Assembly: GCA_036677365.1 (NCBI GenBank)
Contig: JAVBWN010000003.1
Coordinates: 20,678 to 84,677 of the forward strand
Reading direction: 5' to 3'
DNA length: 64,000 nt
DNA from: Acholeplasma sp.
GTDB taxonomy: Bacteria; Bacillota_I; Bacilli_A; Acholeplasmatales; UBA5453
Of the stretch, positions 23,368-49,513 are shown one piece after another. The notes below the pieces were generated by a model. The model was given only the letters and a program-made list of their open reading frames with translations. It ran no database searches and was not told the origin of the DNA. Every line of letters begins with the position of its first letter. Positions within the stretch are counted from its first letter, which is position 1. Both the position numbers and the translations under genes were made by a program.

Positions 23368-24060
23368 TTAATTGTTCAAAACGTCCATATTGATTCGACC
23401 ATCTTTGATTTCAATGATACGATCGGCTTTTTCAGCTATCTTTCTATCATGCGTAATGATGATGAATGTAGTTTTGTATTTGGCATTGATTTCTCTTAAT
23501 AGCGTATACACTTGTTCTGTAGAATCGCTATCTAAGTTACCTGTGGGTTCATCAGCTAAAATGATCTTTGGATTATTGATCAAACTTCTCGCAATCGCGA
23601 CCCTTTGTTGTTGACCCCCAGACATATTTTTAGCGAGATTGTTTTTAACTTTCTTTAACCCAACAAAGTCTAATAGTTCATTGGCACGGTCTAAAATCTC
23701 TGGTGTTATCTTTTGTTTCGAGATTTTATAAGGCATCAAGACGTTCTCTAACGCAGTAAACTCTGGTAACAAATAGTGGAATTGGAAGATGAATCCAATG
23801 TTTTGATTTCTCAAGAAGGAAATCTCATTGGCTTTCATCGATTTGGTATTTTGACCATTGATGAAGATTTCACCATCGGTTGGGTTATCAAGTGTTCCTA
23901 GGATATTCATCAATGTGGATTTACCGGAACCACTTTGACCAATGATGGCGTTGAATGAACCCGATTCAAATTGTAAATCGACACCAAACAAGACTTGTGT
24001 TTTGATTTTTTCACCATACACTTTGGTGATGCCTTTGAGTTCCATGACGGGATTAAGCAT
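23368..24060 (-). CDS. ABC ATP-binding protein (LolD/MacB-like)
   Basis: GQSGSGKST, MSGGQQQRVAIAR, DEPTGNLD. Confidence 0.92.
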   Translation of the reverse strand: MLNPVMELKGITKVYGEKIKTQVLFGVDLQFESGSFNAIIGQSGSGKSTLMNILGTLDNPTDGEIFINGQNTKSMKANEISFLRNQNIGFIFQFHYLLPEFTALENVLMPYKISKQKITPEILDRANELLDFVGLKKVKNNLAKNMSGGQQQRVAIARSLINNPKIILADEPTGNLDSDSTEQVYTLLREINAKYKTTFIIITHDRKIAEKADRIIEIKDGRINMDVLNN

Positions 24061-25216
24061 TGCGGATCACCTCAATGACGGATAATTTAGAAGATTTACG
24101 TGCGGGTACCAAAGCCGCCAATGTAGATACACCCACCGCGATTAAAGCGGATAGAGCGATGAAGCTGTATTCGATATTGAGCGGAATCACTGGGTCACCG
24201 GTGGTGGCGTCAATCGCGAAGGTTTGGAAGGATACCAATAAACCAATACCAAGCAGTACCCCAGTCAATGCTCCAAAGATACCTAAGATCAAGCCTTGAA
24301 ATAAGAAGATTAAGGAAGCGTCACTGTTTTTAATCCCCATCGCTTTTAAAATACCAATTTGTTTGGATTTTTGTAAAACGATGATGGCTAAGATTGAAGC
24401 GATCCCTAACACAACAGAAATCAAGACGAATACTTGAATCATTAAAGAGGAAATACTTTGACCTTGTAAACCAGAGAGTAAGGATGCGTTATTTTCTATC
24501 CAGTTTACAGTCACATAATCAGACCCGATTTGTTCTGAAACCTTAATTGAGATGGCATCGGCTTCAAAATAAGCCGATGCTTTCACTTGAGATTCAATCG
24601 AAGACACGACATCCCCCACTTGGAAGAGTGTTTGGGTGGTATTTAAAGTGGATACGGCCCACAACTCATTGATGGCTTTCACTTCAAAATTGAAGAAACC
24701 AACCACAGTTAACGTGGTATTGCCTTTGAGTGGGACTTGAATCGAAAGGGTATCCCCCACGTTTAAATTGAATTCGGATTTAAAGAAGATCCCTAAGATG
24801 ACTTCGTTGTTAGCGTTTGGTAGTCTACCTTCAGTGAGTTTATCACTAAATTTATATATCCCATCGGCTTGACTGAGTTCAAACCCACGAACCAAGACGG
24901 GTAAGGTATCACTGTTTTTTTCTAACGTACCAGCGACATTGAAGTTTCCTGCAGCGACACGAATACGTGAATCGCTTGCGAGAATGTCTTCGATCAAAGC
25001 GTCATAATTGTCTATGTAATCTTCATCGGTACGGGTAATGGTGATTTGAGAACTGTTACCAATGGTGGTATCTACCAAGCTTTTTTGAAGCCCTGAAATC
25101 AACGCCCCAATGAATACTTGAACCGATACACCCACACCAATCCCTAAGATGATGAATAAGGTTTGAAGTTTACCTGATTTTAAAAACCGAGATGCGATTT
25201 GGAAGGCGAGTTTCAT
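24053..25216 (-). CDS. FtsX/LolE-like ABC permease
   Basis: One TM, a large extracellular domain and 3 TMs. Motif IGILKAMG. Confidence 0.88.
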   Translation of the reverse strand: MKLAFQIASRFLKSGKLQTLFIILGIGVGVSVQVFIGALISGLQKSLVDTTIGNSSQITITRTDEDYIDNYDALIEDILASDSRIRVAAGNFNVAGTLEKNSDTLPVLVRGFELSQADGIYKFSDKLTEGRLPNANNEVILGIFFKSEFNLNVGDTLSIQVPLKGNTTLTVVGFFNFEVKAINELWAVSTLNTTQTLFQVGDVVSSIESQVKASAYFEADAISIKVSEQIGSDYVTVNWIENNASLLSGLQGQSISSLMIQVFVLISVVLGIASILAIIVLQKSKQIGILKAMGIKNSDASLIFLFQGLILGIFGALTGVLLGIGLLVSFQTFAIDATTGDPVIPLNIEYSFIALSALIAVGVSTLAALVPARKSSKLSVIEVIRNA

Positions 25217-25854
25217 TAATGTTTACCCCCCAATTTGAATATATCCTCTTTATGAGTGAGGTGATAATCATACACCAAATGGTCTAAAGCACCGGGTTTA
25301 TTGAAGGCATTACCACCCACAATGATTTTTACATTGGGGAATAAACCTTTGACTTGTTCGGTGATTTGTTTGGTCACAACAAGATTATAATAATTGGTTA
25401 CCGACAAAGCCAAATAATCGGGTTTCAACGCTTTTACAGCCGATAAAATGTCGTTTTTAGGGGTATTGGCACCGATGTACTGAGCGTCAAATCCAGCCAG
25501 TGAGAAGTAATTGGTGACGATGATGGCACCCACTTCATGGAATTCCTCACTTGGACAAACGACCATCACTTTTTGGTTGTTCTTTGGTACTGATTTCTTG
25601 ATTTCGATCAAATAAGGGTAGGTGGATTCGAGGATGGTACGAACAATCGATGTTCTCACGTGTTCTTTCCATATACAAATTTCTTCATCTTCAGAGCTAC
25701 ATACAAATTCATTCAATACAGGTCTTAAGAAGAAGTCATACAAATCATACAATTCAATTTTCTTGTCTTTCAATAAGTTCAGTACATAAGTCATCGCCTC
25801 GTCTTTATTTTCTTCATTGACGAGTTTTAGAAACGGTTCATAATAAGGATGCAT
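25216..25854 (-). CDS. stand-alone cobalamin-binding-domain protein
   Basis: Cap with KEH, then EEFHEVG (His ligand motif), IGANTP and IIVGG. Confidence 0.8.
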   Translation of the reverse strand: MHPYYEPFLKLVNEENKDEAMTYVLNLLKDKKIELYDLYDFFLRPVLNEFVCSSEDEEICIWKEHVRTSIVRTILESTYPYLIEIKKSVPKNNQKVMVVCPSEEFHEVGAIIVTNYFSLAGFDAQYIGANTPKNDILSAVKALKPDYLALSVTNYYNLVVTKQITEQVKGLFPNVKIIVGGNAFNKPGALDHLVYDYHLTHKEDIFKLGGKH

Positions 25855-26011
25855 ATTTTCCTCCTGTAGGTTTACTTAACTATAGTATAACAACTTTATC
25901 ACTTTCTTGTTATAGTCTACCAACAATTATTTCTAATTTCAACTAAAAAGCATTGTATACAATTTAATTTTACACAATTGAATTGATGAGAAAAAAAAGA
26001 GGTTTTACCCT

Positions 26012-41351: not shown

Positions 41352-42164
41352 TTAGGCTGGAATGACGGACCCACCATACGTTTGTGTGATGAAATCTTTC
41401 ACCGCTTGGCTATTTAAAATTTCAGCTAGCGCTTTGATTTTCGCCGATTCTAACAATGAAGATTTCACTGCTAAAATGTTGACATATGGGTTGTTTCCTG
41501 TAGACTCAATGAAAATCGAATCTTCAAGTGGGTTTAAATTACCTTCTAAAGCATAGTTGGAGTTGATGATGTACAAATCCGCTTCTTTGGCGTTATATGC
41601 AGAAATCAAGAAGTCTGGTGCGACATTCGCACGGATGACTAAGTTCTTTGGATTGGAAACAATGACTTCACTGAAGTTGATGGAAGATGCTAAAATATCA
41701 AAATTTTCAGACAACCCAATCAAACCGGCTTGAGCGAGTAAGTTCAATGCTCTACCATGGTCTGAGGTCGAATTAGACAGTAATACCGTCGCGCCATCTG
41801 GGATATTTGATAATGACGTGATGGTGTTGGCGTATAAGCCAATGGGTTCAATGTGGACATAAGAAGCAATGACCAAAGTTTTGTTTGGGTTTTCGGTGTT
41901 GTATTTATTTAAGAAAGGGACATGTTGGAAAAAGTTCGCATCTGCATCCCCAGCAGCCACCGCTGGGTTAGGGAAATAATAATCGGATGTGATGATGACT
42001 TCTAGGTTATAGCCGCGTTCTTTTAATAATGGTCGCGCAAACTCTAAGATTTCTGCGTGTGGGATCGATGTCGCGATGACCTTGATGGTTTTTTCTGAAT
42101 TGTTGCATGCTGCTAGGGTGAAACTTGTCAATAATACGACAAGCAACGTGATGATTTTTTTCAT
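41352..42164 (-). CDS. metQ: methionine ABC transporter substrate-binding lipoprotein
   Basis: LAAC lipobox, PHAEIL, DANFFQH, NSNYA. Confidence 0.92.
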   Translation of the reverse strand: MKKIITLLVVLLTSFTLAACNNSEKTIKVIATSIPHAEILEFARPLLKERGYNLEVIITSDYYFPNPAVAAGDADANFFQHVPFLNKYNTENPNKTLVIASYVHIEPIGLYANTITSLSNIPDGATVLLSNSTSDHGRALNLLAQAGLIGLSENFDILASSINFSEVIVSNPKNLVIRANVAPDFLISAYNAKEADLYIINSNYALEGNLNPLEDSIFIESTGNNPYVNILAVKSSLLESAKIKALAEILNSQAVKDFITQTYGGSVIPA

Positions 42165-42178
42165 GAGAATCTCCTTTT

Positions 42179-42844
42179 TTATTGATGGTTTAATTTTTTA
42201 GATAAATAATCCCCAGTGATCTGGATGATGAATACGAGTAATAAAATGGTGAAGATGGCTAGATACATCAAGGTGTAATTGTTGCCAAACTTTCCATTTT
42301 CATACGCAAGAAATGCGAGTCCACCGGCACCGATGACGGCAGCAGCGGACATGAAGCCGACCAAAGTCACTAAAGTCAATGTGAACCCAGACACCAATGG
42401 GCTTAAGGCTTCTGTAAATACGATTTTAATGAGGGTCCATTTGGATGCACCCATCGATTTTAATGCTTCTAAGGTATTTTCACTGACCGATTTTAAAGCA
42501 TTATTGACAACACGAGCGAAAAACGGGGATGCCGATACAATGAGTGCTGGCAGGGCACCTTTAGCCCCCAACATCGTACCCACCAACGCACGGGTCAATG
42601 GAATCATCATGATGAGTAAAATGATGAATGGAATCGAACGCGCGATGTCATTGATCGTCGATAGAACTCGATAAGCAAGGGTTCTATATAAGCTGGGTTT
42701 AATGATCGTATCATTGGCTAAGATATAGATCAAAAACCCAAGAATCAGGCCAATCACTAAGACAAACGCACCTGTTCCAAAGGTTAAGAACAAGGTTTCA
42801 TACAATGCCTTTAAAAACTGGTTCCAATCATGACTACTGAGCAT
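42179..42844 (-). CDS. metI: methionine ABC transporter permease
   Basis: RSIPFIIL, PFFAR, SAAAVIGAGGL. Confidence 0.92.
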   Translation of the reverse strand: MLSSHDWNQFLKALYETLFLTFGTGAFVLVIGLILGFLIYILANDTIIKPSLYRTLAYRVLSTINDIARSIPFIILLIMMIPLTRALVGTMLGAKGALPALIVSASPFFARVVNNALKSVSENTLEALKSMGASKWTLIKIVFTEALSPLVSGFTLTLVTLVGFMSAAAVIGAGGLAFLAYENGKFGNNYTLMYLAIFTILLLVFIIQITGDYLSKKLNHQ

Positions 42845-43814
42845 AGAGGTTCACCTCCACGTTGTGTGCTTTTAAATAAGCAATGGCTTCACTGGTTTGC
42901 TTACCGAAGAATTGAACGTATAAGAAGCCAATGGTTTCAGATTTCAATGCTAAAGTTTTAGCGTATTTGATATTGACATCGATGTTATATTGCTTGATAC
43001 AATCGGAAAGAATCGTATCGTCACTATTTTTATGGTTATAAACCAATTCATAAACCATCGACTCGGTGGTTTCATATTTGAAGGTTTGTAATAAGGATTT
43101 CGCAACCAACGATGTTGGATGGATGAATAAGTGCTTGATTGGGGTATCCTCGACAATGCGACCTTGATCCATCACCACCACACGGTCACACAACGCTTTA
43201 ACCACTTCAATTTGGTGGGTGATGAAGATGATGGTAACACCTGTTTTTTCATGAATTTGTTTAAGTAAATCTAAAATATCTGTGGCTGTCTTTTGATCCA
43301 AAGCAGACGTTGCTTCGTCACAAAGCAATACTTTCGGGTGGTTAGCCAGCGCTCTAGCGATACCAACCCTTTGACGTTCACCACCGGACAATGACTTGGG
43401 GTACATCTCTTTTTTATCCGATAAACCGACCAAAGACAATAACTCTAAAATACGTTCATCCTTATTACCTGGGTATTTAGCGATATCCAAAGGTAATTTT
43501 ATATTTTCATACACGGTCATCGAATGGATCAAATTGAAATGTTGGAAAATCATACCGATGGTGTGACGCATTCGATCAATCGCCTTTTGCTTATGCATGT
43601 CTAAAGCAACACCATCGATGCTGACAATCCCACCGGTGGGCTCGATTAAGCCGTTGATGATGCGTACCAACGTGCTCTTGCCAGCCCCACTATATCCCAA
43701 AATACCAACGATCTCACCGGCTTCGATGGTTAAATTCACATCATCCAAAGCATGAAATGTCGTTTTTTTATTGGGATAGGATTTAGATATGTGTTTGAGT
43801 TCAATCATGGGCAT
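42834..43814 (-). CDS. metN: methionine ABC transporter ATPase
   Basis: GYSGAGKST, LLCDEATSALD and a C-terminal NIL-like domain. Confidence 0.92.
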   Translation of the reverse strand: MPMIELKHISKSYPNKKTTFHALDDVNLTIEAGEIVGILGYSGAGKSTLVRIINGLIEPTGGIVSIDGVALDMHKQKAIDRMRHTIGMIFQHFNLIHSMTVYENIKLPLDIAKYPGNKDERILELLSLVGLSDKKEMYPKSLSGGERQRVGIARALANHPKVLLCDEATSALDQKTATDILDLLKQIHEKTGVTIIFITHQIEVVKALCDRVVVMDQGRIVEDTPIKHLFIHPTSLVAKSLLQTFKYETTESMVYELVYNHKNSDDTILSDCIKQYNIDVNIKYAKTLALKSETIGFLYVQFFGKQTSEAIAYLKAHNVEVNLYAQ

Positions 43815-44118: not shown

Positions 44119-44712
44119 ATGCGAAAAGGATTATTCATCGCACATGTGGGTTTGATTATATACGCCATCATCCACTTAACAACCCATTTTCAAGCAGGGA
44201 CATTCTTAAACGATGTATTTTCAAATGATGCTGACCCTACACTACTGATGGTCTTCAATTTATTGGGTCTATTGCCTTTGGCATTCATATTATTTGGTAT
44301 AAAGTATTTAGAGATGAATAAAAAACAGTGGGTATTATTGTCAATGGGGTTTGTGTTGGGTGGTTTCATCCTAACGATCCCATTCATCGATGGCAAGCTA
44401 CAATCCAAACCCATATCGAAGAAAACGCACTTAGTCGCTTTGATTGGACTGATCTTATCGGTGATGACGTTGGGTTATGGTGTGATATTAGGTGATTTCA
44501 ATCTGTACTATGAAGCATTCTTAAATGACTCATTCGTACACATCATGACCATGGATTTCCTGTTTTTATATGGGTTATCGATCTATTTATCGTTTAAAAC
44601 ATTCAAAAAACCATATCTATCACTCATCCCAGTGGTGGGTCTATACTCTTATTATTTCAAGACACAGATTGATTTCAATTTGTGTCTTTTTCTTAAGAAG
44701 CATCTTCCTTGA
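44119..44712 (+). CDS. hypothetical membrane protein
   Basis: About 6 TMs, FVHIMTMDF motif. Confidence 0.7.
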   Translation: MRKGLFIAHVGLIIYAIIHLTTHFQAGTFLNDVFSNDADPTLLMVFNLLGLLPLAFILFGIKYLEMNKKQWVLLSMGFVLGGFILTIPFIDGKLQSKPISKKTHLVALIGLILSVMTLGYGVILGDFNLYYEAFLNDSFVHIMTMDFLFLYGLSIYLSFKTFKKPYLSLIPVVGLYSYYFKTQIDFNLCLFLKKHLP

Positions 44713-44769
44713 TATTCAAAGTATATTTGATAAAATTAAATTGAATACAATTAATTGGAGGATAAGACA

Positions 44770-45282
44770 ATGTCAATTTATGAATTCGAAGTCAAACGTT
44801 TAAATCAACAAAAAACATCTTTAAGCAAGTATGAAGGCAAAGTATTGTTAATATTTAATAGTGCAACCAAATGTGGTTATACCAAACAATACGATGGCAT
44901 TGAAGCCTTATATGAAAAATACAATAAGCAAGGGTTAGAAGTATTAGACTTTCCTTGTAACCAATTCATGAACCAAGCCCCTGAATCGGGTAAAGAGATT
45001 GAATCTTTCTGTAAACTCAAATTTGGCACCAAATTCGAAATTTTCGATAAAATCGATGTCAATGGTAAAGATGCAGATCCTTTATTTAAATACTTACGTG
45101 CGAAGAAAGCCGTGGATTACCCTAAAACCAAATCCTCACTCATCGACAGAATTCGTGGGAAAAATACCATCAAATGGAACTTTACGAAATTCTTAGTCGA
45201 TCGTAACGGCAACATTGTATATCGCTTTGGACCCAGCTTCACACCAGAAGAAATGGAGTCCTTCATTCAGGGGTTGTTATAA
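44770..45282 (+). CDS. glutathione-peroxidase-family peroxidase
   Basis: NSATKCGYT, DFPCNQF, IKWNFTKFLVD. Confidence 0.95.
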   Translation: MSIYEFEVKRLNQQKTSLSKYEGKVLLIFNSATKCGYTKQYDGIEALYEKYNKQGLEVLDFPCNQFMNQAPESGKEIESFCKLKFGTKFEIFDKIDVNGKDADPLFKYLRAKKAVDYPKTKSSLIDRIRGKNTIKWNFTKFLVDRNGNIVYRFGPSFTPEEMESFIQGLL

Positions 45283-45717
45283 ATGAATTGGAAACTCGAT
45301 GAACAATTGTGTTTCTTACTGTATGCGAGTTCTCGTAATGTCATCAAAGCGTATAAAGATATATTAGATCCCTTCGGATTGACCTATACCCAATACATCA
45401 CAATGATTGCTTTATGGGAACAAGACCATCAACTCGTCTCTGAACTGGGGGATAAACTCCAACTCGATTCAGGTACATTGACACCCTTATTGAAGAAACT
45501 AGAAAAAGAAGGACGCGTTACACGCGTTAGAGATTTAGAAGATCAAAGAAAGGTCTACATCAGTTTGACCAAAGCAGGTAAAGATTTGGGTGAGGCATGT
45601 AAAGTTGTGCCTGAACGTCTTTTACAATGCGTTCAAATCGATTTTGAAAAAGCAAAGCAGTTGTATTTCATCCTCAAAGGGGTATACAATGACTACCTCG
45701 AAGGAGACAAATCATGA
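45283..45717 (+). CDS. ohrR: OhrR-like MarR-family regulator
   Basis: LDEQLCFLLY (redox Cys), LTYTQY, LDSGTLTPLLKKLE. Confidence 0.85.
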   Translation: MNWKLDEQLCFLLYASSRNVIKAYKDILDPFGLTYTQYITMIALWEQDHQLVSELGDKLQLDSGTLTPLLKKLEKEGRVTRVRDLEDQRKVYISLTKAGKDLGEACKVVPERLLQCVQIDFEKAKQLYFILKGVYNDYLEGDKS

Positions 45718-46796
45718 CCGAACTAGAAAAGAAAGCCTATATGCAAAAAGCGATTGAACTCGCCCAAAAGGGGGAAGGATTTGTTAACCCCAACCCACTG
45801 GTAGGTTCAATCATCGTGAAAGATGGCAAAATCATCGGTGAAGGCTACCATGAATGTTATGGTGGACCCCACGCTGAAGTGAATGCGTTTAATCACGCCA
45901 CCGAAGATGTCGAAGGGGCAACGATGTTCGTTACCTTAGAACCGTGTGCCCACTATGGGAAAACACCACCGTGTGCCTTAAAGATTGTTGAAAAGAAGAT
46001 TAAAAAAGTCATCATCGCGAAAACCGATCCAAACCCTTTGGTCAACATGAAAGGGATAGAAATCCTTAAAAATGCTGGGATTGAAGTGGAATACGGTTTG
46101 ATGAGCGATGAAGTCGAACTTCAAAATGAAATCTTCTTAAAATACATTCAAACCAAAAAACCGTTTGTTTCAATCAAATATGCGATGACCGCCGATGGGA
46201 AACTCGCAACCAAAGATCACGACTCTAAATGGATCACCAATGAAGCCTCGAGGGCGTATGTCCATGAACTGAGAAACAGACACATGGCCATCCTGGTGGG
46301 TGTCAATACCATCATCCATGACGACGCGAGATTAAACACCCGTTTGGACAAACCACACCGTAATCCAATCCGAATCATCATCGACCCAGAACTATCCATC
46401 CCTAGGGATGCTTACGTGATTAAGACCGCGACTGTCCAACCCACTTGGATTGTCACAAAAAAATACGAACAACGCTTGGTGGACCAAGGTGTTCGTATCA
46501 TCCAAATGTCTGAGATTGATTTTGTTCAATTGATGGATAAATTGGGTGAAGAAAAAGTCGATTCTGTCTTGATTGAAGGCGGGTCTTATACCCATGGCAA
46601 GGCCTTAGAATCTGGCATTGTCGATAAAGTTTACGCATTCATAGCACCGAAACTCATCGGTGGTAAAAACGCACTCACCCCGGTGGGTGGCGAGGGGGTC
46701 GCCCTCATGAGTGATGCCTATCAACTCAAAAACGTTACATATACCCCATTTGGAGATGACATCCTCATGGCAGGTAATATCATAAAAGGAGCTTAA
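45714..46796 (+). CDS. ribD: bifunctional pyrimidine deaminase/reductase RibD
   Basis: [33 protein letters not shown]. Confidence 0.95.
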
Positions 46797-46797
46797 C

Positions 46798-48000
46798 ATG
46801 GATAATTTATTTCACACAGTAGAAGAAGTTTTAGAAGACATCAAAGCCGGTAAACCCATCATCTTGGTCGATGATTACGATGAAGATAATACCGGAGATT
46901 TTGTCGTAGCCGCTGAAAAAGTCAATACAGAAACCTTGGCTTTAATGGAAAAATATGCGAAAGGGATCATCAACATCACCACCGATAAAGAAAGATTCCA
47001 CGCCCTAGGCATTCAAGCCTTATACGAACAAACCATCACCGCGTATCAAACCGCGAAAGTGATGTCCGTTGAACTCAATTGTACGGGGAATCGCACTGAA
47101 AAAGCGTTAAAAACAATCAAAGCCATTTTGAATCCAGAAACCAAACCAGGGTCGTTTTTTCAACCAGGGGTCATTTTCCCGATTCAATACCGTCAAGGTG
47201 GGGTCTTAAAGCGTGCAGGTCGTCCTGAGGCTTCGGTAGATTTCGCTAAACTCGGTGGGTTATACCCAGCTGGGGTGACTTCGATCATCTTAAAAGAATC
47301 TGGTGAACCTTACCGTTTATATGAACTCAGAGATTTGGCTCAAAAACTCGGGTTAAAATGGACCGCTGTTTCAAGTTTAATCGAGTTCCGTAAACGCAGT
47401 GAAAACTTCATTAAACGTGCCGCTGAAGCGAACTTACCAACCTCACATGGGGACTTTAGAATGATTGGTTTTGAAAACGCGATCAGTGGCGAACACCATG
47501 TTGCTTTAGTCAAAGGGGACATCAAACCTGGCGATGAAGTCTTGGTCAGAGTCCACTCCGAATGTTTAACAGGAGACGCTTTTGGTTCAATGAAATGTGA
47601 CTGTGGTGAACAACTCCAAGCCGCTTTGGATAAGATTGAAAAAGCCGGTAAAGGGGTATTGGTTTATATGCGTCAAGAAGGCCGTGGGATTGGTTTAATC
47701 AATAAAATCAAAGCATATAATCTTCAAGATCAAGGGATGGACACCGTTGAAGCCAACCTCGCACTTGGCTTTGCAGAAGACTTAAGAGACTATGGTATTG
47801 GGGCTCAAATCTTAAATGATTTGGGTGTAACCAAAGTCAAGCTCATGACCAACAACCCATTAAAACTGTCAGGTTTAACCGGTTATGGCATTGAGATTGC
47901 TTCGAGAGAACCCATCCAACTTAACCATAACGAACGTAACGAGTTTTACATGAAGACCAAAAAAGATAAGATGGGTCACATGCTTAAATTCAAGGAATAA
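46798..48000 (+). CDS. ribBA: RibBA-type fusion: intact GTP cyclohydrolase II, degenerate DHBP-synthase domain
   Basis: RibA motifs [20 protein letters not shown] and TNNP are intact. RibB motifs are altered (DEDNTGD, PGVIFP, AGRPEA). Confidence 0.9.
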
Positions 48001-48004
48001 ACTC

Positions 48005-48652
48005 ATGGCGTATAAAACCATCTGTTTGGACTACGATGGTACCATCCATGACAGTATCCAAATCTATTATAAAGCGTTCCTAAAAGCCTTTGACTATTTG
48101 GTCCAACATGGCCATCAAGCCAAAAAAGACTGGACCAAAGATGAAGTCAAACGCTTTTTAGGACAAAACCCACCGGAAATGTGGGCATCTTTCCAACCAG
48201 CCATACCCCCGGAAGTCATTTCAGTGGTTTCAAAAATGATTGGTGAAGCGATGCGAGACTCCATATTAAACCATGAAGGGGTATTGTTTGAAGGTGCATT
48301 AGATACTTTAGCCTATTTAAAAGAAAAGGGCTATACTTTGGTCTACTTATCAAATTCTAAAAACTACTATATGGAAATCAATAAAAACGAATTCCAATTG
48401 TACCGATACTTTGATTTATTCGTGTCTTCTGAAATGTATGATTACATCCCTAAAAAAGACATCTTAAAAAAACTCAAATCCACACTCCCTCAACCGATTT
48501 TGATGGTGGGTGACCGAATCCATGACATGGAATCGGGACACACCAATCAAATCGATACGGTGGCGTGTTTGTACGGGTATGGTAAGGAAGAAGAATTCAT
48601 CGGTTCAACCTACCAAATTCAAGATATTCGAGATTTAAAAAAAATCCTTTAA
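48005..48652 (+). CDS. HAD-family phosphatase
   Basis: DYDGT, LSNS, VGDRIHD. Confidence 0.9.
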   Translation: MAYKTICLDYDGTIHDSIQIYYKAFLKAFDYLVQHGHQAKKDWTKDEVKRFLGQNPPEMWASFQPAIPPEVISVVSKMIGEAMRDSILNHEGVLFEGALDTLAYLKEKGYTLVYLSNSKNYYMEINKNEFQLYRYFDLFVSSEMYDYIPKKDILKKLKSTLPQPILMVGDRIHDMESGHTNQIDTVACLYGYGKEEEFIGSTYQIQDIRDLKKIL

Positions 48653-48657
48653 AAGAC

Positions 48658-48700
48658 AAAACGACTGATTCTCACAAAAGAGATCATCAGTCGTTTTTTT
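48658..48700. terminator. bidirectional terminator ending the rib operon
   Basis: AAAACGACTGAT...ATCAGTCGTTTTTT between convergent genes. Confidence 0.75.
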
Positions 48701-49513
48701 TTATTTGATTGAGATGAATCGTGGTTTTCTATGTTCAAATTGAGCCACTTCATTAAAACCAGCAGCCTTTATTAGATTTATCGCTGTGTCAAAATCTTTT
48801 TGATAGTCTTTTAAGTAATGGGCATCTGAACCTAAGGTGATGATTTTCCCACCCAAGTTTTTATATAATTTCAACACTTCTAACCTTGGATGCGTGACCC
48901 CTAAACCATATCTAAACCCAGAGGTATTGAGCTCAATGCCTTTGTTTTTTCGAATGATTGTTTCAAGGATTTTCGTAATGATGGGTTTGAAATAATCAAA
49001 ATCATACATTCTTTGTGAAAAACCCCCATAACGAATGATGTAATCGATGTGACCAAACACATCGTAATTATCGAAGTTTTCAACCGCGTGTAAGACAATT
49101 TCAAAATAGCGTTGATACGCTTCGATTTGGGTTTTCCCTTTGAAAAAATCGCCATTATATAAATCCAAACCATCGCCCATGTGGATCGATAAGATGACAA
49201 AATCAAACTGGTATTGATTTAAGAACGTATCGATGCGTTGGTTCAAATGGGGTTGATAACCCATTTCAACCCCCATCAAAATGGGTAAAGTATATCGCTG
49301 TCTTAAAGATAGGATATTTTTGTAATAAACATCATAGTCGATGGGTTCGTTAAAAATAGGTGCAGCAAAATCAAAATCTACATGGTCTGAAAAAAGTACC
49401 CCTGGATACCCTTTTTGTTGTGCAACTTCAATGTAGTTTTCCATCGATAAACTTTGATCCGCATCTGGGGATGCTTGGGTATGCATGTGGTGATCGATGA
49501 TTTTTATGGACAT
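48701..49513 (-). CDS. PHP-domain histidinol-phosphatase (HisJ family)
   Basis: DHHMHT, SDH, GHIDY, ELNTSG, GSDAH. Confidence 0.85.
   Translation of the reverse strand: MSIKIIDHHMHTQASPDADQSLSMENYIEVAQQKGYPGVLFSDHVDFDFAAPIFNEPIDYDVYYKNILSLRQRYTLPILMGVEMGYQPHLNQRIDTFLNQYQFDFVILSIHMGDGLDLYNGDFFKGKTQIEAYQRYFEIVLHAVENFDNYDVFGHIDYIIRYGGFSQRMYDFDYFKPIITKILETIIRKNKGIELNTSGFRYGLGVTHPRLEVLKLYKNLGGKIITLGSDAHYLKDYQKDFDTAINLIKAAGFNEVAQFEHRKPRFISIK

Follow-up and report, generated by a model that had tools for sequence, protein, structure and literature searches.

The described systems closest to the locus studied here are the Bacillus-type riboflavin operon, ribD(G)-ribE-ribBA-ribH, with its flavin mononucleotide (FMN) riboswitch, and the ohrA-ohrR regulon of Bacillus subtilis. 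In a 64,000-nt stretch of contig JAVBWN010000003.1 (assembly GCA_036677365.1, Acholeplasma sp., a wall-less bacterium), hereafter the window, on which all coordinates are based, we analysed a five-gene cassette, gpx-ohrR-ribD-ribBA-HAD, that resembles both. With the Bacillus-type operon it shares RibD, the RibA domain and the gene order D-BA, and the ribD-ribE-ribBA-ribH-HAD operons of related Bacilli have the same family of haloacid dehalogenase (HAD)-type phosphatase. It differs from that operon in having no ribE or ribH and a RibB that is predicted to be dead, so that it would be unable to reach riboflavin, and an OhrR-boxed promoter with gpx-ohrR takes the place of the FMN riboswitch. The sensor-cysteine motif and the operator sequence are as in the B. 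subtilis ohrA-ohrR regulon, whereas the targets here are Gpx and three biosynthetic enzymes, with no Ohr/OsmC gene.

The cassette is real, conserved and selected. Its enzymes are each of a known kind and the OhrR-linked half pathway is apparently undescribed; the openly searchable literature gave no description at the level of listings and abstracts, with subscription journals and supplements outside that scope. In our judgement there is an even chance that the operon is the GTP branch of riboflavin synthesis put to another use, with GTP converted to 5-amino-6-(D-ribitylamino)uracil (5-A-RU) as a sacrificial oxidant sink beside Gpx.

Layout and predicted control of the cassette

The open reading frames (ORFs) of the cassette, all on the forward strand, are separated by gaps of 0, −4, 1 and 4 nt, identical to those in the original prediction. 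The first, gpx (44770..45282), encodes a cysteine glutathione-peroxidase-family protein of 170 aa (GSHPx PF00255, E 1.7e-38). It is followed by ohrR (45283..45717), encoding a MarR-family repressor in which QLCFLLY (Cys10) is the N-terminal sensor motif and whose top NCBIfam match was OhrR NF052638 (E 5.6e-38), a Vibrio model, under its cut-off. The bifunctional deaminase/reductase gene ribD (45714..46796) scored 369.8 bits with TIGR00326 against a cut-off of 156. The ribBA ORF (46798-48000) is composed of a RibB domain (3,4-dihydroxy-2-butanone-4-phosphate (DHBP) synthase; 46798..47403), below the TIGR00506 cut-off and predicted to be catalytically dead yet retained, and an intact RibA domain (GTP cyclohydrolase II, GCH II; 47404..48000), over the TIGR00505 cut-off and aligned to PDB 2BZ0. 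The HAD gene (48005..48652; PF13419, HAD_2) belongs to a rib-operon-linked phosphatase family, predicted to act on 5-A-RU 5'-phosphate (ARPP). Folding bore out the terminator previously claimed after HAD: a forward-strand hairpin with a U-tract (48658..48702) had a stability of −20.8 kcal/mol over 48658-48697 (z −4.4) that none of 200 shuffles equalled, although it was missed by a simple scan for terminators. A membrane-protein gene lies upstream and ends in a terminator-like hairpin (44659..44688, forward strand), which separates the cassette from it.

OhrR control had been proposed with no mention of an operator. The predicted sigma-70 promoter of the cassette (44709..44736, forward strand; −35 TTGATA, extended −10 TG-n-TAAAAT) carries an OhrR-type tandem operator (44731..44760, forward strand) that overlaps the −10 box and the ribosome-binding site. 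By hand count, it agreed with the B. subtilis ohrA operator (PMC2651793) at 22 of the first 24 bases and 24 of 30 overall, placing an operator of the TACAATT-n-AATTGTA type over the promoter as in OhrR regulons. With a matrix from 18 relatives' sites, 44731-44760 was the top match of the whole genome at 33.8 bits, the runner-up reaching 22.9; further matches (C14:147716, C12:70843, C12:71220 and C1:69364) lay inside or at the start of ORFs. Of the 27 ohrR-linked loci, 22 have a contig that includes the promoter, and the operator was present in all 22; the same 22 all retained TGATA(A/C)AAT, and the sensor motif Q(L/I/V)CFLLY was found in 27/27 cassette repressors. As the left half of the operator is the −10 box, part of its conservation belongs to the promoter. 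By itself the pattern showed only mild enrichment in the window (4 matches versus 1.35 expected, with 4 of 100 shuffles reaching 4), and the operator's weight comes from its position and conservation. Together, the conserved operator and the sensor cysteine supported the claimed control of the cassette by OhrR, and induction is predicted. No Ohr/OsmC gene was detected in the genome (PF02566, no match), which makes Gpx the likely peroxidase target.

Contigs of RNA libraries from four metagenome studies, of sludge or of unspecified source, span all four gene junctions and cover 44762-48655. A contig of run X5 (44762-46029) bridged gpx-ohrR-ribD and one of run X1 (46531-48655) bridged ribD-ribBA-HAD; overlapping X1 pieces covered 44766-48655, and their end at 48655 is weak evidence for the terminator. 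These runs were selected by this very stretch and had no DNA control. Cover was absent at 48707-49073 in 4/4 runs, which we did not count toward the transcript end.

The missing lower branch and conservation across the order

Profile searches of the genome (1.97 Mb, 99.86% complete) found no lumazine synthase (RibH, PF00885) and no riboflavin synthase (RibE, PF00677), with profiles that matched 14/14 and 11/14 control genomes, respectively. DHBP synthase (PF00926, 14/14 controls) was matched only at this locus genome-wide, and a tblastn search of the genome with RibH and RibE of genome G029 gave nothing under E 0.3. The claimed absence of ribH and riboflavin synthase thus holds for the whole genome, and the search for intact ribB, ribH and ribE elsewhere in it returned none. 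As also claimed, there is no FMN riboswitch at the locus, with no Rfam match in the window. The only one in the genome is on another contig (C21:27872), ahead of a gene for a membrane protein of 232 aa that had only one NCBIfam match, below cut-off, to a putative energy-coupling factor (ECF) transporter subunit. Based on this annotation, riboflavin is probably imported via an ECF component under FMN-riboswitch control.

The RibB domain had been described as degenerate, and our comparison agrees. It scored 122 bits with TIGR00506 against a cut-off of 177; DDEDRENEGD was altered to [14 protein letters not shown], GIIN was read at another motif, and PGH, GHTE and CEI had become PGV, GRPE and TSI. 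In 18/18 canonical RibBA rows, ten DHBP-synthase positions were invariant (R-E-E-D-C-H-R-H-T-E). Few of the 37 cassette rows retained them: none the first Arg or first His, one each the Cys and the Thr, and three each the first and second Glu. Of the ten, only the Arg of GGVLKRAG was retained in 37/37. With catalytic residues gone, a score below cut-off and no second copy, DHBP synthase function is predicted to be lost. The surrounding stretch GGVLKRAG(H/R)PE (RibBA residues 134-148) stays conserved in the dead domain.

By comparison, the two other enzymes appeared complete. The three zinc cysteines of RibA were present in 37/37 cassette rows, and in the alignment to 2BZ0 the invariant columns C256, C267, C269, Y307, D328 and R330 were all occupied; the active site is canonical, with no hint of altered specificity, and GTP cyclohydrolase II is, judged by motifs only, active. 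RibD aligned over its full length to B. subtilis RibG (PDB 2B3Z), with HAE, the PC..C zinc residues and the reductase motifs in place. Of the features of a riboflavin operon, motifs therefore indicated GCH II and a bifunctional RibD, and DHBP synthase, RibH/RibE and an FMN riboswitch were not found. In the RibA domain (205-396), 21 positions are fixed in cassettes and variable in canonical proteins.

The order was sampled with 260 genomes of at least 80% completeness, in which we found GCH II in 43, RibH in 10, RibE in 12 and a RibD match in 42. Neither RibH nor RibE was present in 33 of the 43 GCH-II genomes. Some of these are single-contig, and given this recurrence and the completeness of our genome we rejected an assembly gap as the cause of the missing genes. 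A full-length RibD was present in 28 of the 33 and a reductase-only RibD in one; the four without a RibD match at E 1e-40 comprise two at contig breaks (G007, G127) and two that are RibA-only (G046, 99% complete; G062, 94%). The dead-RibB protein occurred in 36 genomes, with ohrR directly before ribD in 26, so that the arrangement is conserved in relatives, and contig ends hide the ohrR linkage in two more. Conservation of the half pathway extends across two families of the order. Close named relatives of RibBA were from Paracholeplasma vituli (91%), Acholeplasma equifetale (71%) and an uncultured Mariniplasma (64%); the first two are named records (L070 and L076) of cultured carriers, which makes the hypotheses below directly testable.

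Ratios of nonsynonymous to synonymous substitution (dN/dS) against four moderately diverged relatives lay at 0.008-0.024 in RibA, 0.036-0.056 in the deaminase part of RibD and 0.045-0.083 in the dead RibB, and against three of them at 0.051-0.055 in HAD. Comparisons with the nearest and the most distant relatives suffer from noise or saturation: at dS 0.02-0.03 the nearest gave noisy values of 0.43 for RibB and 0.29 for the RibD reductase, and one distant relative gave 0.34 for RibB. The half pathway is under purifying selection, and, noisy values aside, the low ratios led us to reject its decay.

Several variants of the cassette were observed. A second truncated type, in G008 (L030:7631-9813) and G111:C11 (L191), combines a dead-RibB RibBA and a RibD; the deaminase domain of this RibD is degenerate in G008, and in G111:C11 the start of the contig truncates it. 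In G008, gpx and ohrR are located elsewhere, divergent, around a box (L254). In G031 (L064:6143-8516) ribD-HAD lies tail to tail with an ORF resembling superoxide dismutase by eye, with ribBA elsewhere, and the 64%-complete G006 (L067, L021) has two differing gpx-ohrR-ribD copies and may be a mixed bin. Cassettes of genus g19 (L226, L228, L237-L253) are followed by a sarcosine-oxidase-like flavoprotein cluster with an aldehyde dehydrogenase gene, presumably proline-catabolism-like and a possible local source of oxidant. The cassettes L233 (G061), L235 (G065) and L085 adjoin ORFs that by eye are recombinase-like or restriction-modification-like, and the RibBA of G065 is 89% identical to that of the window despite belonging to a different family; we regard these as signs of horizontal movement.

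Elsewhere in the window, a second OhrR-type box (25958..25972, reverse strand) lies 121 nt upstream of a B12-binding-domain gene (PF02310; 25216-25854, reverse strand), which is followed by an FtsX/MacB-type ATP-binding cassette (ABC) permease and ATPase (region 23368-25972). Of 13 orthologous upstream regions, 8 have the box, each in a genome with an OhrR orthologue; it was missing in G001 and G003, both without OhrR and rib genes. This distribution makes the B12-binding gene and ABC pair a possible second member of the OhrR regulon. They were rejected as obligatory partners of the cassette since the distributions differ, the B12-binding gene occurring in cassette-less genomes and not being found in several with the cassette. 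A SAM (S-adenosylmethionine) riboswitch (RF00162, 43874-43960, reverse strand), just above gathering score, precedes metN-metI-metQ-like genes (41352-43814).

Origin and proposed function

The HAD gene ties the cassette to complete riboflavin operons. A sample of 399 genomes of the class gave 16 sites with HAD orthologues outside the order, 13 of them right after ribH: 12 in complete ribD-ribE-ribBA-ribH-HAD operons and one in ribBA-ribH-HAD at a contig start. Of the other three, two were in ribD-ribBA(dead B)-HAD, in genomes in which RibH was not found, and one was unlinked. An orthologue was present in 9 of 61 relatives, all 9 with ribBA, and the sequence has the DxDGT and GDRxxD motifs. The family's linkage identifies HAD as a rib-operon phosphatase and the cassette as a form of that operon from which ribE, ribH and RibB activity are gone; the three lost functions are those below 5-A-RU. 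Based on these data, we predict that HAD is the ARPP phosphatase (the RibZ role). In several Bacilli families, complete rib operons (L284-L294, L296, L278, L279, L090) have this HAD family immediately following ribH, making it a candidate for a dedicated ARPP phosphatase, an enzyme still called unidentified or weakly supported in 2025-2026 papers (PMC12051542, PMC13151069).

G111, G123 and G128 hold both the cassette and a ribE-ribBA(intact)-ribH operon without ribD or HAD, which an Rfam FMN riboswitch precedes in the two with upstream DNA on the contig. In all three, the sole full-length RibD is in the OhrR operon. It is likely that a ribD-ribE-ribBA-ribH-HAD operon with an FMN riboswitch divided into two, its upper half coming under OhrR and its lower half being FMN-controlled, and that the lower half was then lost from most lineages. 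A quick tree of 81 of 91 rows (10, including G183 and G186, were dropped by the domain-cutting pattern) placed the 37 main dead-RibB rows in one group (Shimodaira-Hasegawa-like approximate likelihood ratio (SH-aLRT) 92) near canonical tenericute RibBA, and G008 with G111:C11 as a separate pair. Being midpoint-rooted, this tree does not establish which events came first. Genus g34 (L231, L232) has complete FMN-riboswitch rib operons beside ORFs resembling photolyase and carotenoid enzymes by eye, in genomes of ~1 Mb.

The known enzymology of these families suggests that oxidation of Cys10 would release OhrR, RibA would open GTP to 2,5-diamino-6-ribosylamino-4(3H)-pyrimidinone 5'-phosphate (DARP), RibD would deaminate and reduce DARP to ARPP, and HAD would strip the phosphate. 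Riboflavin would come from ECF import, and 5-A-RU would be left without an enzymatic consumer. Its electron-rich 5,6-diaminopyrimidine may react with reactive nitrogen species, peroxyl radicals or, as a third possibility, dicarbonyls. For the last of these, mgsA was rejected as a discriminator because it is present with and without the cassette. The conserved half pathway, the operator and the lack of RibH and RibE favour the original prediction of 5-A-RU as an end product under OhrR, but this cannot be extended to every lineage. The stopping points vary: RibA alone (G046, G062), RibA with a reductase-only or deaminase-dead RibD (G008, G111:C11), or RibA and RibD with or without HAD. RibA alone is predicted to yield DARP, and a deaminase-dead RibD a 2-amino ribityl compound. 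All would be ortho-diaminopyrimidines, so that a shared chemical group, and not one exact molecule, seems to be retained. Also in favour of a scavenger, ARPP decomposes in oxygen (PMC12051542), and the GCH II (Rib1) product of yeast scavenges NO-derived species via its ortho-diamine, independently of riboflavin (PMC7138843). Among three mollicutes, a metabolome study reported a peak of ARPP mass only in A. laidlawii, and read the annotated enzymes as FMN synthesis (PMC3942410).

A number of points weigh against 5-A-RU as an OhrR-controlled scavenger. Eight of the 36 carriers have no adjacent ohrR, with the genes partly scattered, and neither of the two cassettes outside the order is preceded by gpx-ohrR. 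The RNA contigs are weak evidence, fitting a single transcript without proving one. The searchable literature gave no paper on scavenging of peroxyl radicals or peroxide by 5-A-RU. Related aminopyrimidines can redox-cycle, producing peroxide. RibA is slow, at ~0.06 per second or once per 17 s (PMC13151069), which limits the supply of a stoichiometric scavenger. The metabolome study assigned a ribosyl isomer to two enzyme-less species and its identifications are soft (PMC3942410), and the yeast case, as described, is nitrosative and not peroxide stress, with RIB1 uninduced and the later pathway genes dispensable (PMC7138843).

The chief rival, which we consider unlikely, is nucleotide sanitation, in which RibA would destroy oxidised guanine nucleotides (8-oxo-(d)GTP, formamidopyrimidine (Fapy)-GTP) and RibD and HAD would merely drain the reactive DARP that arises from GTP as well. 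RibA is the one gene that all carriers retain, even where it stands alone (G046, G062), and it is conserved beyond canonical operons at matched RibD divergence: median RibA identities were 88% for cassettes versus 72% for canonical operons at RibD identities of 55-62% (14 versus 20 pairs) and 91% versus 76% at 62-70% (145 versus 4 pairs), among 22 cassette and 15 canonical loci whose pairs are not independent. E. coli RibA is cited second-hand as hydrolysing 8-oxo-dGTP, with ribA in the SoxRS regulon (PMC6092379, PMC6906586). Set against this, seven NUDIX proteins are already present in the genome (no MutT has been demonstrated among them), a dedicated phosphatase together with a RibD that consumes NADPH would, in most carriers, be costly for disposal, and the canonical RibA active site shows no sign of changed specificity.

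It is quite improbable that 5-A-RU feeds an unrecognised downstream enzyme and so a new cofactor or metabolite. A dedicated phosphatase would be sensible if the dephosphorylated compound were wanted, and the second OhrR-type box lies ahead of the B12-binding protein and ABC pair; however, that gene's distribution does not follow the cassette, no extra gene recurs across cassettes, and lineages end at differing steps. The consumers we looked for were not found. The original prediction had noted that 5-A-RU is the deazaflavin precursor; the genome has no CofH_C (PF19288), and of the six ORFs with CxxxCxxC among 1940 none is FO-synthase-like by inspection, so that with no CofG/CofH/FbiC the route to FO, F420 or 8-hydroxy-5-deazaflavin (8-HDF) was excluded. 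The genome has no dihydropteroate synthase (FolP, PF00809; absent from 5/5 genomes tested), leaving no sign of a GCH-II-fed folate bypass, and no lumazine-antenna (FeS-BCP) photolyase was found. The methyltransferase and tailoring genes that accompany ribA/ribD in toxoflavin-type clusters do not recur inside cassettes, the whole genomes not having been searched for them.

There is only a slim chance that the OhrR link is incidental, the rib genes having been captured behind gpx-ohrR with a function unrelated to oxidants or as a slowly decaying remnant. The carriers without the link would fit this, as would the 217 of 260 genomes of the order that show no GCH II and the interruption of ribBA in two cassette copies (G127, G128; possibly assembly errors). 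Against it, the near-zero-gap fusion persists across two families, dN/dS is 0.01-0.06 for RibA, the RibD deaminase and HAD, and losses are restricted to lower-branch functions. In addition, G065 has ohrR-ribD-ribBA-HAD with a box and without gpx, leaving its OhrR locally only rib genes to control.

Export appears very unlikely, whether as 5-A-RU cross-feeding partners that hold only ribE-ribB-ribH or as methylglyoxal adducts acting on hosts via the antigen-presenting molecule MR1. Dephosphorylation would permit it, mgsA was present in 5/5 genomes tested and lower-half-only operons exist, but mgsA is also in the cassette-less G003, the observed lower-half operons sit in genomes that also have the upper half, the RNA sources were sludge metagenomes and not hosts, and the compound is oxygen-labile. 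It is scarcely credible that riboflavin synthesis continues with unrecognised enzymes in place of RibB, RibH and RibE: non-homologous enzymes would be invisible to profile searches, but three independent ones would be required, the FMN riboswitch governs a probable ECF uptake component (match below cut-off), and riboflavin-making genomes use the ordinary ribE-ribBA-ribH.

Returning to the scavenger proposal, we give somewhat less than an even chance to its joint form, in which a split of the rib operon and discarding of the FMN half gave Acholeplasmatales a peroxide-inducible, non-thiol antioxidant route based on a ribityl-diaminopyrimidine, the resulting auxotrophs would be sources of ligands for MR1 and MAIT (mucosal-associated invariant T) cells, and HAD would be a dedicated ARPP phosphatase family.

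Significance and comparison with known systems

If the scavenger proposal is correct, an intermediate of a vitamin pathway has its own selected job and represents a new chemical type in bacterial oxidant defence. It would also break the rule of thumb that only riboflavin prototrophs supply MAIT antigens, because 5-A-RU requires no more than ribA, ribD and a phosphatase. A partial rib pathway is not necessarily a sign of decay or of an annotation gap, and the operon-linked HAD family offers a candidate for the dedicated ARPP phosphatase.

Four described systems share individual features with the cassette. The deazaflavin (FO/F420) branch also uses 5-A-RU as a precursor (PMC12240317), through CofG/CofH/FbiC, which are not present here. 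Control of E. coli ribA by SoxRS, together with its 8-oxo-dGTPase side activity, is a second-hand example of an oxidant-linked GCH II (PMC6092379, PMC6906586), but there a single gene of a complete pathway is involved. Arabidopsis RIBA3 (PMC3509567) is similarly a bipartite RibBA protein with a dead DHBP synthase and an active GCH II, long conserved and functioning as GCH II only; unlike the cassette protein, it coexists with the bifunctional RIBA1 in a riboflavin prototroph. Nitrosative tolerance through yeast RIB1 and DARP (PMC7138843) resembles the proposed function in that protection is independent of riboflavin and is due to the ortho-diamine of the GCH II product. As described, the yeast effect is an uninduced side effect of a complete pathway, with DARP as the product and reactive nitrogen species as the stress, and has no dedicated operon, whereas the Acholeplasma cassette joins the half pathway to gpx and ohrR in an operon of its own.

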